Assembly: GCA_030584065.1 (NCBI GenBank)
Contig: CP129489.1
Location: 1,777,497 to 1,841,496 of the forward strand
Reading direction: 5' to 3'
DNA from: Flavobacteriales bacterium
GTDB lineage: Bacteria > Bacteroidota > Bacteroidia > Flavobacteriales_F > PHOS-HE28
DNA: 64,000 nt
Below are positions 2,975 to 46,803 of the stretch, piece by piece. The position numbers were made by a program, and so were the translations under genes. The first letter of the stretch is position 1, and each line of letters starts with the position of its first letter. The notes under the pieces are model-generated. The model was not told the origin of the DNA and searched no databases. It was given only the letters and a program-made list of their open reading frames with translations.

Positions 2975-3774
2975 GGGTTGACGGAGGTTGTGAGGGTGGT
3001 ATCGGCGGCGAGGCTGTCGGCCACGATGGGCTCGGCCACCGGTGGCGGCGGCGGCGCCACCACGGATTTCAGGTACTTGTCATAGGTGGCCAGCGTGCGC
3101 AGCAGCATCTCGCTCACGCCATCGCTGGTGATGGTGCCGCCGCTGATCCCGTCCACGCCATGCGGGTCGGTGGTGCCGGTGCCGCCCTTGTACACCTTGA
3201 TGCCGGCGTAGCTCCCGTCCTCCTCGGTGAAGGTCTTACCGGGGAACTGGCCGGTGAAGACCGGGGTGGCGATTTCCGCGCCCAGGCCGGGGGTCTCGCC
3301 CTTGTGGTCGAAGGTGCTGCCGAACACGGTGCGGCCATCGCTCTCCACGCTCAGGTAGCCCCAGATGGGCCCCCAGAGGCCCGTGCCCACCACCGGCAGC
3401 ACGAAGAGCTCATTGCCTTCAGCGGTAGCCTTGTACACCGGGTACTTCAGGTCCTCGGCCTTCAGCACGCCGGCCTTCCAGTCCTTGTACTGCTTCAGCA
3501 CGTCGAGGCTGAAGGCATCGCCTTCCACGGGCTTCCCCTCCGCATCCACGAGCAGGGTCTCCTTCACCAGCTCCTGGTACTTGGCGGGCGCGGCATCGCG
3601 CTCCACCTTCACGTTCATGCTGGCGAGGATGTTCTGCATCTTCTCGCGCCGCACGTTCTCATCGTAGGCGGGCTTCAGCGCCAGGAAGGTCACCGCCAGC
3701 AGGGTGCCCACCACCACCACCAGCACGGTGGCGAAGATGAAGGTGAACGAGTTGCTGTTCTTGTCGAAGGCCAT
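2971..3774 (-). CDS. nqrC: Na+-NQR subunit C (FMN-binding)
   Basis: 267 aa, single N-terminal TM helix plus a periplasmic FMN-binding domain (motif ...GISGGTITSDGV...). Confidence 0.9.
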   Translation of the reverse strand: MAFDKNSNSFTFIFATVLVVVVGTLLAVTFLALKPAYDENVRREKMQNILASMNVKVERDAAPAKYQELVKETLLVDAEGKPVEGDAFSLDVLKQYKDWKAGVLKAEDLKYPVYKATAEGNELFVLPVVGTGLWGPIWGYLSVESDGRTVFGSTFDHKGETPGLGAEIATPVFTGQFPGKTFTEEDGSYAGIKVYKGGTGTTDPHGVDGISGGTITSDGVSEMLLRTLATYDKYLKSVVAPPPPPVAEPIVADSLAADTTLTTSVNP

Positions 3775-3783
3775 GGCGTTCGG

Positions 3784-4974
3784 TTAGGCGGTTTGCAGGG
3801 CGGCAGCGCGCTTCAGGCGGCGCTTCACATTGGCCTGCACCACGTAGTGATCGATGAGCGGTGCCATCACATTCATGAACAGGATCGCCAGCATCATGCC
3901 CTCGGGGTAGGCCGGGTTCACCACCCGGATGAGGATGGCCATGGCGCCGATGAGGAAGCCATAGATCCACTTGCCGGTGTTGGTCTGTGCGGCGGTCACC
4001 GGGTCGGTGGCCATGAACACCAGGCCGAACATGAAGCTGCCGAGCATGAGCTGGTGCAGCACGGGAATCTGCATGTAGGCGTTGCCCAGCGAGGGGCCCA
4101 CCAGGTTGAAGAGGCTGCTCATGGCCGCACCGCCCAGGAACACGCTGAGCATGATGCGCCAGCTGCCGATGCCCGTGAGCAGCAGGATGGCCGCGCCGAT
4201 GAGGCAGGCGAAGGCGCTGGTCTCACCGATGCTGCCGGCTTCGAAGCCCCAGAAACTGTCCAGCATGGGCACCACGCCCGCCATGTTGCCCGACGCCGCA
4301 TGCCCCAGCGAGGTAGCGCCGCTGAAGCCATCCACAACGGCCTGGCCGGGCTCCAGCGCGGTGTTCACCCACACCTTATCGCCGCTCATCATGGTGGGAT
4401 AAGCGAAGAAGAGGAAGGCGCGCGCGGTGAGCGCCACGTTGAGGATGTTCATGCCCGTGCCGCCGAAGACCTCCTTGCCGATCACTACCGCAAAGGCGGC
4501 GCCCACGGCCACCATCCAGAGCGGGGTGTCCACCGGCATCACCAGGGGGATGAGCATGCCGCTCACCAGGTAGCCTTCCTGGATGGGGTGCCCCTTGATG
4601 CTGGTGAAGAGGAACTCGATGCCCAGGCCCACGCCGTAGCTCACCACCACGATGGGCAGCACCTTGATGGCGCCGAAGAGGAACTTGTCCCAGAAGCCCT
4701 CGCCCGCCTGGGTGAACTCGCCCAAGGCCAGGAAGTGCTGGTGCCCCACGTTCCACATGCCGAAGAGCAGGCACGGGAGCATGGCGGTGATCACGATGCT
4801 CATGGTCCGCTTCAGGTCGATGCCATCGCGGATGTGGGCCCCCTTCTCCGTGGCGTGGCCGGGGGTGAAGAGGAAGGTCTCCAGGCCGTCGAAGACCCAA
4901 TGCAGCTTCTCGAGCTTGCCCCCCTTGCTGAAGGCGGGCTTCATGCCATCGACCAGGTTGCGCAGTGCTTTCAC
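3784..4974 (-). CDS. nqrB: Na+-NQR subunit B
   Basis: 396-aa polytopic protein, NqrB/RnfD family (GxSLGHAASG-like region). Confidence 0.9.
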   Translation of the reverse strand: MKALRNLVDGMKPAFSKGGKLEKLHWVFDGLETFLFTPGHATEKGAHIRDGIDLKRTMSIVITAMLPCLLFGMWNVGHQHFLALGEFTQAGEGFWDKFLFGAIKVLPIVVVSYGVGLGIEFLFTSIKGHPIQEGYLVSGMLIPLVMPVDTPLWMVAVGAAFAVVIGKEVFGGTGMNILNVALTARAFLFFAYPTMMSGDKVWVNTALEPGQAVVDGFSGATSLGHAASGNMAGVVPMLDSFWGFEAGSIGETSAFACLIGAAILLLTGIGSWRIMLSVFLGGAAMSSLFNLVGPSLGNAYMQIPVLHQLMLGSFMFGLVFMATDPVTAAQTNTGKWIYGFLIGAMAILIRVVNPAYPEGMMLAILFMNVMAPLIDHYVVQANVKRRLKRAAALQTA

Positions 4975-21332: not shown

Positions 21333-21620
21333 GACGACCTTCCCGTCGATCGGGGTTCGGACAAGATAGTGGCGGGTCTTACTTCCCGAACACCTCCCTT
21401 CGCCTTCGCTGAAGCTGCGGCGAACGCGACCGGAGCCACTCCAGGCCTTGTCCGCCGTAGCCTGGCGGAGGCGGATACTCCGCTTTCTGGCCGGCGGCCT
21501 CCGCCGGAATGGCCAGTGGCTTGCCCGTTGTCCGCCGCAGCTTCAGCGAAGGCGGGTTCGTAGGCCTTGAAGCTCTGGCCCACGGTCGCCTCGGCGAAGT
21601 GGTCCATGCCTCCGCTAAAG

Positions 21621-25372: not shown

Positions 25373-25735
25373 TGGCCAAGCGACACGACGTCTTCACCAA
25401 GGCCAAGCGCTCGGAGGTGATGTCGAAGATCCGGGGCAAGGGCAACAAAGCCACAGAGGTCGCCCTAGCCAAGCTATTTCGGGCCAGCGGCATCACCGGC
25501 TGGCGCAGACACTATCCCATTACAGGGAAACCAGACTTTGCCTTCCCCAAGCTGAAGTTCGCCGTCTTCGTGGATGGCTGCTTCTGGCATGGCTGCCCCA
25601 AGCATGGCACCCGGCCCAAGGGTGTAAGCTTCCCCGAAGTTCGGCCATTCATTGCTGGAGGTGAAGTGATCCTTGGCCCCGCGGGGCCAAGGATCGCTTC
25701 GGCCGGCCAGGGGCTACATTCAACCACACGTAGCC

Positions 25736-41842: not shown

Positions 41843-42312
41843 TCACATATTCCGCCGATACTGCCCCCCCACCTCAAACATTGCAGCAGTTAACTGACCC
41901 AGGCTGCAATACTTGGTCGCTTCCATCAAGACCGCAAACATGTTCTCGTTCTTGATCGCAGCCTCTTGAAGCTTCCGAGTGCGGCTTTCCCTTCAGCCTC
42001 ATAAGCCTTCTGCACGTTCTCCACGGTGCGGATCTGCGCTTCCTTCTCCTCTTCCGTAGCACGGATCACTTCCTTCGGGAGAACGGTCGGCGATCCTTTG
42101 CTCGACAAGAACGTGTTCACCCCAATGATCGGATACTCACCCGTGTGCTTCAGGGTCTCGTAGTACAAGCTCTCTTCCTGGATCCTTGAGCGCTGGTACA
42201 TGGTCTCCATGGCGCCCAGCACGCCGCCGCGCTCGGTGATGCGGTCGAACTCGCTGAGCACGGCCTCTTCCACCAGGTCGGTGAGCTCCTCGATGATGAA
42301 GCTGCCCTCGCG
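41843..42312 (-). pseudogene. icmF 3' copy B (~470 bp, frameshifted)
   Basis: Track ORFs 41926..42273 and 41874..42062 give ...[93 protein letters not shown]..., then the frame is lost. Confidence 0.8.
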
Positions 42313-42328
42313 CGTTCCCTTGCTTTGA

Positions 42329-43249
42329 TCACACTACGATGTACCGCTCTTGCAAATACGTTAGCCACTTATCGAAATCGGGTGATGGCGAATGCTCCTG
42401 GCAGATATCAAGAAATCGTTCATAAGTAAGCGTCATGAACCTGCCGTCCGGTGCGGCTAGGAAGGACTTGTAGCCTGTGCAAGCGTCGTCCATGTGCTTA
42501 TTGCCTTTCGGGAACAAGGTGAGCGAGGTAGCGTGGGCAAATCGCTCAGGATGCTTGAGCAGAATGCTCTCCGCGAGTAGGTGGTTCCGCCAGATCTGCC
42601 GGTAATCGTCTGTGATCACCTGTGTTTCGCATCCCGGCTTGAATATCCCACAGGCAGCCATGACCTTGAAGTAAATAGAGGCTCGGTCATTCACAGTTCG
42701 CTCTTCCGTGGAGCCATGCTTCAATTTGTAGGCGCGTTCGGTGTACTTCACCTCAATCCCGATAAGCCCCCGCCGACCTTCCTTATCAGTGCTTTCGGTA
42801 TATGCATCGAAAGATGTACCATCATTCAAATACTCTGAACGTGGCGACGGCGCAAACTCGATGCGAATCGGATCGACAGTGCTCAAGGGTTCTCCAAGCA
42901 AGTCTGAGAAAACCTGCAGGCGATACTTATCGTCCAAGTTCAGGGGCCAGAGCATGTTCAACGGAATGTGCTCGCTCCGAAGCATGTTCCCATAGACCTT
43001 CTCGCTCGTTATCGGATAACGCTTCCTAGCGGCTTCCAAGATGCCTAACTCGGGATAGAAGTTGCATCCTGCATCCGCGTCGCATGGCGTTAGGAAGTTG
43101 CCGTAGTTCTTCGTCTTACTCCATCCGTGTGGCAATTTCAACCGCTCTGCACGGAATCTTGATTGATGAAGGCGCGCCTTCTTCAGGAATTCGGACTTAT
43201 CGAGTCCGTCATCCCCGCTGTATTGTGGTCCGATACCGTAACTCATCAC
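42329..43249 (-). CDS. hypothetical PD-(D/E)XK-like nuclease-fold protein (cargo of the cassette nearest icmF)
   Basis: ...[29 protein letters not shown]... (D...E-x-K). AT-richer than the flanks. Its start overlaps the icmF stop. Confidence 0.4.
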
Positions 43250-46200
43250 ATATTCCTTCTGTACTGTCCGCCGACTTCGAACATGGCCGCAGTGAGTTGA
43301 CCGAGACTACAGTACTTGGTGGCTTCCATCAACACTTCGAACATGTTCTCATTCTTGATCGCAGCTTGCTGGAGGTCTTTGATGGCTTTGGCCGCCTCAT
43401 CCGCATAAGCAGTTCGGAGATTCTCGACGGTCGCTATCTGGGCTTCTTTCTCCTCTTCCGTAGCTCTGATGACCTCTTTCGGCAAGATCGTCGGTGATCC
43501 TTTGCTCGACAGGAAGGTATTCACCCCGATGATGGGATACTCACCCGTGTGCTTCAAGGTCTCGTAGTACAAGCTTTCCTCCTGGATGCGGCTGCGCTGG
43601 TACATCGTTTCCATCGCACCCAAGACCCCACCACGTTCCGTGATCCGATCGAACTCCGTCAACACCGCTTCCTCGACGAGATCCGTCAATTCTTCGATGA
43701 TGAAGCTGCCCTGCAACGGGTTCTCGTTCTTGGCCAGGCCGAGCTCGCGGTTGATGATGAGCTGGATGGCCATGGCGCGGCGCACGCTTTCCTCGGTGGG
43801 CGTGGTGATGGCCTCGTCGTAGGCGTTGGTGTGCAGGCTGTTGCAGTTGTCGTAGATGGCGTACAGCGCCTGCAACGTGGTGCGGATGTCGTTGAAGTCG
43901 ATCTCCTGCGCGTGCAGGCTGCGGCCGCTGGTCTGGATGTGGTACTTGAGCATCTGGCTGCGCTCGTCGGCGCCGTAGCGGTGCTTGAGCGCCTTGGCCC
44001 AGAGGCGACGCGCCACGCGGCCCATCACGGCGTACTCGGGGTCCATCCCGTTGCTGAAGAAGAAGCTCAGGTTGGGCGCGAAGGCGTTGATGTCCATGCC
44101 CCGGCTGAGGTAGTACTCCACGTAGGTGAAGCCGTTGGCCAGCGTGAACGCGAGCTGCGAAATGGGGTTGGCGCCGGCCTCCGCGATGTGGTAGCCGCTG
44201 ATGCTGACGCTGTAGAAGTTGCGGACCTTTTGGTCGATGAAGTACTGCTGAACGTCGCCCATCAAACGCAGCGCGAACTCGGTGCTGAAGATGCAGGTGT
44301 TCTGCGCCTGGTCCTCTTTGAGGATGTCGGCCTGCACGGTGCCGCGGACGCTCTGCAGGGTCTCCGCCTTGATCTTCTCGTAGACGTCTTTCGGGAGGAC
44401 TTGGTCGCCGGTGATGCCGAGCAACAACAATCCTAGGCCATCATTGCCCGCAGGTATTTCTCCGTGGTAGCGCGGTCGAGGTGAATGGTGAATGGGAGTT
44501 GGTGAATGGGAAGAGCCCTTCCCTCCATTCGCCATTGACCATTCGCCATTCGCCTTCTCCAACTTCTCCCAGCGCTCCTTGATCTTCTTCTCCACCTCGG
44601 CCTCCAACCCGTGCTCACGGATGTACTTCTCACAGTTCTGGTCGATCGCGGCGTTCATGAAGAAGCCGAGGAGCATGGGCGCGGGACCGTTGATGGTCAT
44701 GCTCACGCTGGTGTTGGGCGCGGTGAGGTCGAAGCCGCTGTAGAGCTTCTTGGCATCGTCCAGGCAGCAGATGCTCACACCGCTGTTGCCCACCTTGCCG
44801 TAGATGTCGGGCCTGCGACCGGGATCGTGGCCGTAGAGCGTCACGCTGTCGAACGCGGTGCTGAGGCGCTTGGCGGGCATGCCCTGGCTCACGTAGTGGA
44901 AGCGCTTGTTGGTGCGCTCCGGACCGCCCTCGCCGGCGAACATGCGCGCGGGGTCCTCGCCCTGGCGCTTGAAGGGATAGATGCCCGCGGTGTAGGGGTA
45001 CGACCCCGGGGTGTTCTCCTGCATGGCCCAGCGCACCTTGTCGCCCCAGCTGCGGAACTTGGGCAGCGCCACCTTCGGGATCTTCAGGTGACTGAGGCTC
45101 TCGGTGTGGTTGGGCACCTTGATCTCCTTGCCGCGGACGGAGTAGGTGTAGAATTCACCGGAGTATTTCTCCTCCTCCTTCTTCCAGTTCTGGAGCATGG
45201 ACCAGAGGTGGGGGTCGAGGTCTTTGCGGATGTCCTCGAACTTCTTCACCAGCTCAGTAACGAGTGGTGAGTGGCGAGTGGCGAGTGTGCCGTCGGAGGC
45301 AGCACTCGCCACTCGCGACTCGTCACTCACCACTCCGTGAAGGACGTCAGGCCCGCCGAGCGTGAGGATCGATGAGTACAGACCATAGAGTTGGTCCGCA
45401 ATACGTGCCTGTTTCGTCACCCGATCATCATACCTCCGGTTGTTCTCGCTGATCTCGCTGAGGTAGCGGCTCTTGGCGGGGGGAATGATCCACACCTTCT
45501 CGCTCATCTCGTCCATCCCGTGGAAGGTGCTCTTGAAGTCCACGCCGGTCTTCTCGGCGATCTTGGTCATCAAGCGGGCGTAGAGCGTGTTGGTGCCGGG
45601 ATCGTTGAACTGGCTGGCGATGGTGCCCACCACGGGGAGCGTGTCATCGTCGGCGTCCCACAGCTGGTGGTTGCGCTTATACTGCTTCTTCACGTCGCGC
45701 AGGGCATCGAGGGCGCCGCGCTTGTCGAACTTGTTGATGGCCACCACGTCGGCGAAGTCGAGCATGTCGATCTTCTCCAGCTGCGTGGCCGCGCCGAACT
45801 CCGGCGTCATGATGTAGAGGCTCACATCGCTGTGGTCCAGGATCTCGGTATCGCTCTGGCCGATGCCGCTCGTCTCCAGGATGATCAGGTCGAAGCCCGC
45901 GGCCTTCAGCACGCTCACGGCCTCCTTCACGTGCTTGCTGAGGGCCAGGTTGCTCTGGCGCGTGGCGAGGCTGCGCATGTATACACGCTCGCCGCGGATG
46001 CTGTTCATGCGGATGCGGTCGCCCAGCAGCGCGCCGCCGGTCTTGCGCTTGCTCGGGTCCACGCTGATCACGCCGATGGTCTTGCCTTGGTCCGGGCTTG
46101 ACCCGGACTGGTCCAGGATGAAGCGGCGGATGAGCTCGTCCACCATGGACGATTTACCCGCGCCGCCCGTACCCGTGATGCCCAGCACGGGAGCCTTGTT

Positions 46201-46803
46201 CGCCTCGGCCTGCTTGTGGATCTCGTCGGCGATCTTGGCGAACACCTCGGGATGGTTCTCGGCCGTGCTGATCAACTTGGCGATGGCCGGCCAGTTCTGC
46301 GGCGTCAGCTTCTTCGCCTCGCCGTTCACCTTATCGCTCAGGTCGAAGTCGGCCTTCTCCAGCATGTCGTTGATCATGCCCTGCAGGCCCATCGCGCGAC
46401 CGTCATCCGGATGGTACAGGCGCGTGATGCCGTACGCGTGCAGCTCCTCGATCTCGCTGGGCAGGATCGTCCCGCCGCCACCGCCGAAGATCTTGATGTG
46501 CCCCGCGCCCTTCTCCTTCAGCAGGTCGAACATGTACTTGAAGTACTCCACGTGCCCGCCCTGGTAGCTGGTCATGGCAATGGCGTGGGCATCCTCCTGG
46601 ATCGCGGTGTTCACCACGTCCTCCACGCTGCGGTCGTGCCCCAGGTGGATCACCTCGGCGCCGGTGCTCTGGATGATCCGCCGCATGATGTTGATGGCGG
46701 CATCGTGGCCGTCGAACAACGAGGCGGCGGTGACCACGCGGATCTTGTTCTTGGGCTGGTAGGGAGGAGCTTGCACGAACGTTGACATGTACGGAGGCCG
46801 CAA
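43246..46803 (-). CDS. icmF: fused isobutyryl-CoA mutase (B12-binding domain, MeaB-like G-protein, mutase barrel), with two in-frame palindromic insertions
   Basis: [11 protein letters not shown]12 DxHxxG; [13 protein letters not shown]-loop; methylmalonyl-CoA-mutase-like C-terminal half ending ...[11 protein letters not shown]. 1185 aa against ~1090 typical. Confidence 0.9.
44479..44551. repeat. in-frame palindromic insertion 1 in icmF (arms of GAATGG-type short repeats around GGGAAGAGCCCTTCCC)
   Basis: ggtgaatggtgaatgggagttggtgaatgggaagagcccttccctccattcgccattgaccattcgccattcgcc; encodes the odd segment ...[26 protein letters not shown]... Confidence 0.6.
45262..45334. repeat. in-frame palindromic insertion 2 in icmF (arms of GAGTGGC-type short repeats)
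   Basis: gagtggtgagtggcgagtggcgagtgtgccgtcggaggcagcactcgccactcgcgactcgtcactcaccactc; encodes ...[24 protein letters not shown]... Confidence 0.6.

Follow-up and report, generated by a model that had tools for sequence, protein, structure and literature searches.

Among short repeats that lie in frame within bacterial genes, the Rickettsia palindromic elements (RPEs) are by far the most frequent case in a 2024 review of MITEs (miniature transposable elements with inverted repeats), which mentions neither Bacteroidota nor heptamers (PMC10969869). As outlined there, RPEs are short multicopy palindromes of several families that lie in frame in unrelated conserved genes and encode tolerated peptides (Ogata et al. 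2000 via PMC10969869); they are ∼100–150 bp long, occur in obligate intracellular Alphaproteobacteria and have arms that are not tandem heptamers. We analyzed a stretch of 64,000 nucleotides (nt), hereafter the window, from a Flavobacteriales bacterium (assembly GCA_030584065.1, contig CP129489.1, positions 1,777,497 to 1,841,496), in which the fused isobutyryl-CoA mutase gene icmF carries two hairpin elements. An earlier note on this DNA likened them to RPEs, and the comparison holds in the sense that they work alike: in-frame palindromes of this kind are found here in icmF, dnaE, an adenylate cyclase gene and the gene for a defence-island protein, with translation deduced. By size, arms and host, the elements are set apart from RPEs as described, being 70–90 bp long, having heptamer arms and residing in free-living high-GC Flavobacteriales, in which the same loops hold different families in close relatives. 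We consider it probable (about 0.72) that they are RPE-like selfish hairpin repeats, members of one dispersed family of ∼70–90 bp, that have taken up in-frame positions in two permissive IcmF loops.

Tandem heptamers form the second point of comparison. In Xanthomonas, GGGAATC arrays show a preference for four units, make up 70–75 convergent pairs per genome, and are intergenic and under-represented in genes (PMC4692102). The elements in icmF share tandem heptamers of about four units with these arrays and with the GGGGAYT arrays of Nostoc, and share convergent inverted pairing with the Xanthomonas type. All four of their arms are period-7 arrays of 3.9–4.7 copies by Tandem Repeats Finder, arranged convergently, and the same holds across the related loci described below. 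The described arrays, however, are intergenic and contain G3 tracts that are read as G-quadruplex formers, whereas the icmF copies lie within open reading frames (ORFs) and have GG tracts only (PMC4692102). Repetitive extragenic palindromic (REP) sequences, their hairpin-forming doublets (REPINs) and the associated RAYT (REP-associated tyrosine transposase) genes offer a further likeness, in that they too are short dispersed hairpins evolving within genomes with no target-site duplication, often between operon genes, as are similar hairpins in viral contigs (see below); REPs are 20–40 bp long, extragenic, headed by GTAG or CGTC and tied to a RAYT gene (PMC3116915, PMC3733652). The present elements end in AGG(C/T)GAATGG...CCATTCACCT, are longer and have intragenic copies. 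Nor do they have the MITE arrangement of terminal inverted repeats with a target-site duplication, as the whole element is the hairpin and no direct repeats flank the six coding copies inspected. Studies by Mazel in 1990 and Elhai in 2008 reportedly describe cyanobacterial short tandemly repeated repetitive (STRR) heptamer arrays together with small hairpin-forming mobile repeats, occasionally within genes; these belong to another phylum and have other units. Yeast GC clusters are hairpin elements in organelle genes. Long inverted repeats with both arms translated occur in protein-coding genes of Nematomorpha mitochondria (PMC6649704). These organelle palindromes differ in genome and sequence class, and heptamer periodicity has not been reported for them.

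The host gene and the two elements have the following positions in the window.

43246..46788, minus strand: icmF coding sequence, fused isobutyryl-CoA mutase; 1180 amino acids (aa) from the ATG at 46788, by ORF list and translation.
44478..44556, minus strand: hairpin element 1 (site 1, family A); gene-strand unit GGCGAAT; 25-aa peptide, aa ∼746–770.
44480..44509, plus strand: arm of element 1; GGTGAAT x4.3 (Tandem Repeats Finder).
44525..44554, plus strand: arm of element 1; CCATTCG x4.3 (Tandem Repeats Finder), with G.T pairing to the other arm on this strand.
45256..45338, minus strand: hairpin element 2 (site 2, family E); unit GAGTGGC; 23-aa peptide, aa ∼488–510.
45261..45287, plus strand: arm of element 2; CGAGTGG x3.9 (Tandem Repeats Finder and inverted-repeat report).
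45303..45335, plus strand: arm of element 2; CACTCGC x4.7 (Tandem Repeats Finder and inverted-repeat report).

The minus-strand ORF at 43246–46803 has the B12-binding, MeaB and MM_CoA_mutase domains of IcmF by Pfam, and its closest solved structure is 4XC6, the IcmF of C. metallidurans (E=0). Both inverted repeats lie where the earlier note had placed them, with slightly wider boundaries. Of the two repeat units it proposed, the heptamer GAGTGGC is correct and the hexamer GAATGG is not, the true unit again being a heptamer; the family E unit is one base away from that of family A. The description "near-perfect" fits element 2, with arms of 26 nt that are 92% complementary. It fits element 1 only when G.T pairs on the plus strand are counted, and fails on the mRNA strand, where C.A mismatches occupy those positions. 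The icmF frame is open through both elements without a stop codon, and translation yields exactly the peptides that had been quoted. Compared with dinucleotide shuffles, element 1 has fold z-scores of −8.4 (plus strand) and −4.2 (gene strand) and element 2 of −7.3 and −7.1, respectively; none of 200 shuffles is as stable as the elements. As a correction to the suggestion of strong mRNA hairpins, the mRNA-sense hairpin is the weaker of those on the two strands. Only two further, weaker hairpins were detected in the rest of the window at the score cut-off used. Searches of Rfam with the elements returned only sub-threshold matches to eukaryotic miRNA-hairpin models. Neither the splicing domain of an intein (∼130 aa or more) nor an intron ribozyme, as expected of a self-removing in-frame element, was seen: the inserts comprise only ∼25 aa, and Pfam reveals only IcmF domains.

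Judged from alignments, the elements are lineage-specific insertions of a high-GC Flavobacteriales clade. The nearest relatives of the window's IcmF are proteins of high-GC metagenome-assembled genomes labelled "Flavobacteriales bacterium". In an alignment of 120 homologues, low-complexity inserts vary at exactly the two icmF sites: Flavobacterium-type proteins read ...KGxxRPKYxG... at site 1 and are free of inserts, and IcmFs of the query clade, 82–95% identical overall, have 10–50 additional residues there and likewise at site 2. As an outgroup we used 80 Bacteroidota loci, among the matches listed, with an icmF no more than 75% identical to the query. Both anchors of the AIDQ-to-GNDGLG interval, which brackets site 1, were found in 73 outgroup loci, and in 57 of these the spacing is 117 nt. 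Clade members have a spacing of 147–261 nt, the exceptions being L091 and L092 (117 nt) and L105 (126 nt; L and P numbers denote individual loci and proteins). The segments are therefore missing from distant IcmFs, as an insertion origin had led the earlier note to expect. Its view of lineage specificity applies to the sequences; the two positions, however, are common across the clade, with different hairpins in relatives. Similarly, the excess length it noted is explained by the two repeats for ∼50 aa, the remainder being a ∼40-aa segment that belongs to the Bacteroidota homologues examined.

Both sites map to places where additional residues might be accommodated, in agreement with the loop or linker positions foreseen. 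Site 2 aligns just past the G-protein domain, after residue 443 of the C. metallidurans IcmF; in structural papers, residues 443–1093 of the Cupriavidus protein constitute the linker plus substrate-binding domain fragment. In the substrate-binding domain, Bacteroidota have an insertion of their own between Cupriavidus residues 734 and 735, and site 1 falls within it. The AlphaFold2 model of the 1180-aa protein is poor, with a predicted local distance difference test (pLDDT) score of 63.9, and both inserts are coil with pLDDT <50, which weakly suggests that they are disordered loops.

Related copies are present in unrelated genes; the search for them, suggested in the earlier note, thus came out in its favor. 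Using six-frame translations of both hairpins as peptide queries, we found matching peptides in a DnaE fragment (two inserts), in a 301-aa defence-island protein, P0123 (two), and in an adenylate cyclase. The corresponding DNA contains heptamer-armed hairpins at L109 511–581 and 966–1046, L110 10152–10224 and 10576–10647, and L111 7913–8019, and the copies in dnaE, the cyclase gene and the P0123 gene are in frame. An intergenic copy (L111 6555–6685) has a long TGGTGAT run and stop codons in all frames. A protein search with a 31-aa insert gave three spurious repeat-protein matches, the query being too short. The inserts of the defence-island protein combine A-type left arms with E-type right arms, and these A/E hybrid hairpins in L110 indicate that the two hairpins of the window belong to one family. 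Clade orthologues of DnaE have two variable loops, after ...CSL and after ...DPFxLVE, which are empty in outgroups and some clade members but, like the icmF loops, nearly always occupied across the clade. Occupied loops hold IcmF-type families (GEW...HSP, SDDQxIRRSENG, PLAAG...QPAA, SVVS...TTDNGQP and HEPRA), and several peptide families are common to the IcmF and DnaE loops of different genomes. Nearly all of the clade DnaE proteins (P0129–P0167) are partial and lie on contigs of 1–12 kb; metagenome assemblies may break at the repeats within dnaE. Separately, a CTTTAGC direct array adjoins a 23S_rRNA_IVP gene at L110 8452–8482.

Long simple repeats in prokaryotes are most commonly heptamers, which are ascribed to slippage (Mrazek 2007, as cited in PMC4679880). 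Each hairpin might thus have been invented locally, through heptamer slippage plus template switching in place, with no movement between sites. The unit types of the two sites are only one or two substitutions apart, and a direct (GGCGAAT)x11 array exists in Burkholderia without a hairpin, both of which accord with this possibility. The shared sequence details of the copies argue otherwise. Aligned copies from icmF, both dnaE sites, the cyclase gene and another icmF loop have four left heptamers in common as well as an irregular right arm, CCATTCACCAACTCCCATTCACC / CCATTCACCAACTCCCATTCACCATTCACC, and non-periodic irregularities recur in them at matching positions (a TCAATGG variant and an CCAACTCC octamer). 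Such shared irregularities indicate homology, not convergent slippage. Local invention also sits poorly with the peptide families common to IcmF and DnaE loops in different genomes and with the tendency of one genome's two sites to hold the same family, and we regard it as highly doubtful.

The content of the two icmF sites is strikingly variable. Among 30 clade icmF loci, nearly all have a strong hairpin with heptamer-array arms at both sites, and 24 of the 31 strongest hairpins in 359 kb of clade loci fall within the two ∼100-nt icmF loops. At least 10 arm unit types were recognized (CGAATGG, CGAGTGG, CGAGTCA, CGAGCCA, CAAGCCA, GAATCAG, GCCAGCA, GAATTAGC, GGAATTA and CGGGTTA). The same or a neighbouring family occupies both sites in L086, L087, L090, L102, L107 and L113, and the window's own two units differ by one base. 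Identity between inserts is 0.50–0.55, the shuffled baseline, where flanks are 85–90% identical and flanking third codon positions 68–80% identical. Inserts at shuffled identity beside conserved third positions imply that content turns over faster than point substitution. Recombination has made the gene itself a mosaic: L081 is an almost perfect match to the window near site 1 and ∼75% identical to it near site 2, and L082, which carries the same element as the window at site 2, shows the reverse. Repeats of 7 aa (21 nt), such as GSKLEAx, occur within insert peptides, nested and hybrid hairpins are observed, and the peptides are linker-like, being rich in Ser, Ala, Gly and Pro and nearly devoid of F, Y, C and M. 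A hairpin of CAAGTGT units also lies ∼1.5 kb upstream of icmF in L085 (6808–6921), where all three forward frames contain stops.

For the dispersed selfish family that we favor, these observations suggest the following course. Each arm consists of about four tandem heptamers of the CGARTGG type, and the elements would have entered the linker after the G-protein domain and the Bacteroidota-specific loop of the substrate-binding domain. There they would be translated as ∼25-aa disordered loops rich in Ser, Ala, Gly and Pro that the enzyme tolerates. Their removal would require a deletion that is both precise and in frame, which might be why they persist. Turnover of content would proceed through heptamer slippage, tolerated in 21-nt steps; through recombination or gene conversion between copies, which would produce nested or hybrid hairpins and place one family at both sites of a genome; and through homologous exchange of icmF segments between lineages. 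Spread, in what is a committed guess, would begin with breakage provoked by the hairpin, followed by break repair templated on another copy. More speculatively, a putative trans-acting nuclease or transposase might seed new sites on rare occasions.

It is also possible, though distinctly less probable, that the icmF and dnaE loops are fixed landing pads in which hairpin content is overwritten by whichever heptamer family is active in the genome. Mobility would then be recombination-based and targeted by the hairpin, and possibly initiated by a nuclease, DUF559 or PD-(D/E)XK genes being clustered at icmF. If true, the elements would spread between lineages on conserved flanks, like inteins or homing endonucleases but without splicing, and would represent a new class of coding-region mobile element; the strand-biased G.T pairing described below would show which DNA strand carries the recognized hairpin.

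Several observations count against a dispersed selfish family. Translation of the inserts is deduced solely from conservation of the frame and of its freedom from stop codons. At the copies and loci fetched, we detected neither a transposase nor a target-site duplication nor any other sign of mobility: no flanking direct repeat occurs at any of six family-A/E coding copies inspected, no conserved target motif is evident at element ends, and no transposase adjoins the copies in those loci. Copies are sparse in the DNA sampled: in ∼483 kb of clade sequence, just one or two heptamer hairpins are located outside icmF and the genes that were fetched for having them. Only a single pair of loci, L099 and L102, combines flanks that are >90% identical with unrelated inserts, such that replacement cannot be told apart from very rapid change in place. 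In addition, the persistence of a hairpin at the same sites despite full sequence change also fits selection for structure, and the consistent strand asymmetry of the hairpins is not predicted by a purely selfish model.

This asymmetry is pronounced. The antisense strand folds better in 28 distinct icmF inserts and the sense strand in 2. Site 1 has 18 G.U pairs in the sense folds and 73 in the antisense folds, and site 2 has 45 and 65, respectively. Of five copies located in other genes, four display the same antisense bias. The mismatches on the mRNA strand are C.A, and 132 of these were considered for restoration of pairing by a C-to-T change. Avoidance of stop codons was rejected as the cause, as such a change creates an in-frame stop in only 13 of the 132. 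It would give a stop or a hydrophobic residue in 71 and be synonymous in 48, and peptide-level selection thus partly accounts for the asymmetry, explaining about half of it. Other candidate causes are selection against over-stable mRNA hairpins, avoidance of hairpins in the lagging-strand template, and a strand-specific recognition step.

Strand bias in pair types, seen in other host genes as well, would fit hairpins that are functional structures whose pairing is kept by selection while sequence drifts, either in mRNA, by pausing ribosomes at domain boundaries, or as antisense RNA or template DNA structures. The presence of hairpins at both sites in almost all clade members despite complete sequence turnover and the location of site 2 at the linker between the G domain and the mutase of a four-domain fusion protein are in keeping with such a role. 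We nonetheless judge it unlikely. Hairpins are missing from all outgroups and from some clade members, although these share the domain architecture: L091 and L092 lack the site-1 insert, the spacer of L105 is only 9 nt longer, and at site 2 the segments of L084, L091, L092 and L108 are merely short and fold weakly. The same elements occur in unrelated genes and between genes; a process of mutation or recombination is suggested by the tandem-heptamer arms, the hybrids and the nested copies; and the better-folding strand is not the mRNA.

Insertions of a different type have also entered the icmF loops. A DUF559 nuclease domain is present in frame at site 1 of P0051 and at site 2 of P0092 and P0114. 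The P0051 insert (L112 ∼3650–4190) is Vsr-like; it has 25-bp terminal inverted repeats, GCCCTCACCCCCGRCCCCTCTCC, at its boundaries and a separate CCCCTCTCC-N4-GGAGAGGGG hairpin at either end. Short inserts of the form LTPxPSPKERG...GPGxEG, which make a hairpin at site 2 of L101, site 1 of P0068 and site 2 of P0017, resemble DUF559 ends joined together and look like ORF-less derivatives of the DUF559 insert. By extension, the heptamer hairpins could be solo remnants, that is, joined terminal inverted repeats of in-frame nuclease-encoding elements that homed into the loops and later lost the ORF. This resemblance applies to that one non-heptamer family only. No nuclease ORF was found between heptamer arms in families A and E or in other heptamer families, and the DUF559 insert is displaced by four codons downstream relative to the heptamer hairpins, which together make a remnant origin very improbable.

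Nuclease genes are likewise found beyond the 3′ end of icmF. In the window, a PD-(D/E)XK nuclease gene (PDDEXK_13/REase-ARP; 42329–43249, minus strand) overlaps the icmF stop codon; after it comes a second, diverged version of the last ∼100 icmF codons (41926–42273, minus strand), 88% identical in aa sequence and then out of frame. This arrangement (41926–43249), also present in L081 and missing from L082 and L083, resembles a mobile cassette that arrived with an icmF 3′ end of its own. A link between the hairpins and this nuclease gene was considered and rejected, as L082 and L083 have the hairpins without the gene. In two distant Bacteroidota, Hymenobacter terrenus and a Bacteroidia metagenome-assembled genome, one or two extra C-terminal icmF fragments lie 0.6–2.6 kb downstream of the intact gene (L073 13396–16103 and L029 13348–14070). 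The DNA in between encodes either DUF6000 together with a PDDEXK_2 "nuclease family transposase" or small toxin-antitoxin-like proteins. The icmF 3′ end appears to be a recurrent integration site.

Heptamer tracts within reading frames are the classical architecture of phase-variable genes, and by this precedent slippage by one heptamer unit could frameshift icmF and serve as a contingency switch. The arrays are short, however, with three to five imperfect units, and the same elements occur in the essential gene dnaE. Among the icmF genes sampled, the frame is disrupted in P0122, where we take an error of assembly or a frameshift error to be the cause, and in L106, which has stops at site 2. 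A switch function is therefore hardly credible.

Hairpins with A- and E-type units also occur in viral contigs. Exact heptamer strings of the two types match 103 and 69 IMG/VR stretches, respectively, and an inverted partner lies nearby in 22 and 33 of these. Such hairpins are often found several to a contig, at gene boundaries of HK97-type head modules, in contigs with a GC content of 0.6–0.7. For family B and C units in viral contigs, an inverted partner was found in 1 of 120 and 0 of 120 among the matches listed. As B and C strings are nearly all partnerless direct arrays, the claim that the hairpins are widespread is limited to A/E-type units. Phage-like contigs L178 (3656–6630) and L216 (1825–8812) have five CGARTRG-type heptamer hairpins each, and L115 and L173 have four to five each; all four contigs have a GC content of 0.66–0.71, and their hairpins lie within ∼3–7 kb at head-module gene boundaries, one just upstream of an HK97-type prohead protease gene. 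BLAST searches with a consensus hairpin gave no match in cultured phages and, in plasmids, only a Burkholderia direct array. The latter, at L285 600–685 (plasmid CP101281.1 of Burkholderia sp. FXe9), is a perfect array of the unit of element 1, without an inverted partner at that site, and the replicon has 16 matching places.

The window holds two other structures. An inverted repeat at 21401–21554, not heptamer-based, has 25-nt arms that are 96% complementary and 104 nt apart, and a 40-nt near-perfect palindrome at 25662–25701 (GAAGTGATCCTTGGCCCCGCGGGGCCAAGGATCGCTTC) is possibly a terminator or a protein-binding site.

In-frame palindromic repeats were already known from Rickettsia, and convergent heptamer arrays from intergenic regions of Xanthomonas. 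What appears to be new is the coding residence of such repeats in essential genes of free-living Flavobacteriales and the re-use of fixed loops by many families. For 25 years, in-frame selfish palindromes have been largely a Rickettsia story; the elements described here constitute a second system, in free-living environmental Bacteroidota, with a different architecture (heptamer-array arms), that reaches highly conserved essential proteins such as IcmF and the replicative polymerase DnaE. They join two separate literatures, one on unexplained heptamer repeats and convergent arrays and the other on coding-region palindromes. The repeats inflate apparent protein divergence, could serve as strain markers and may break metagenome assemblies. 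They also represent a natural experiment in which dozens of unrelated peptides of 20–50 aa are tolerated at one enzyme loop, which bears on linker design and on the origin of new protein segments.

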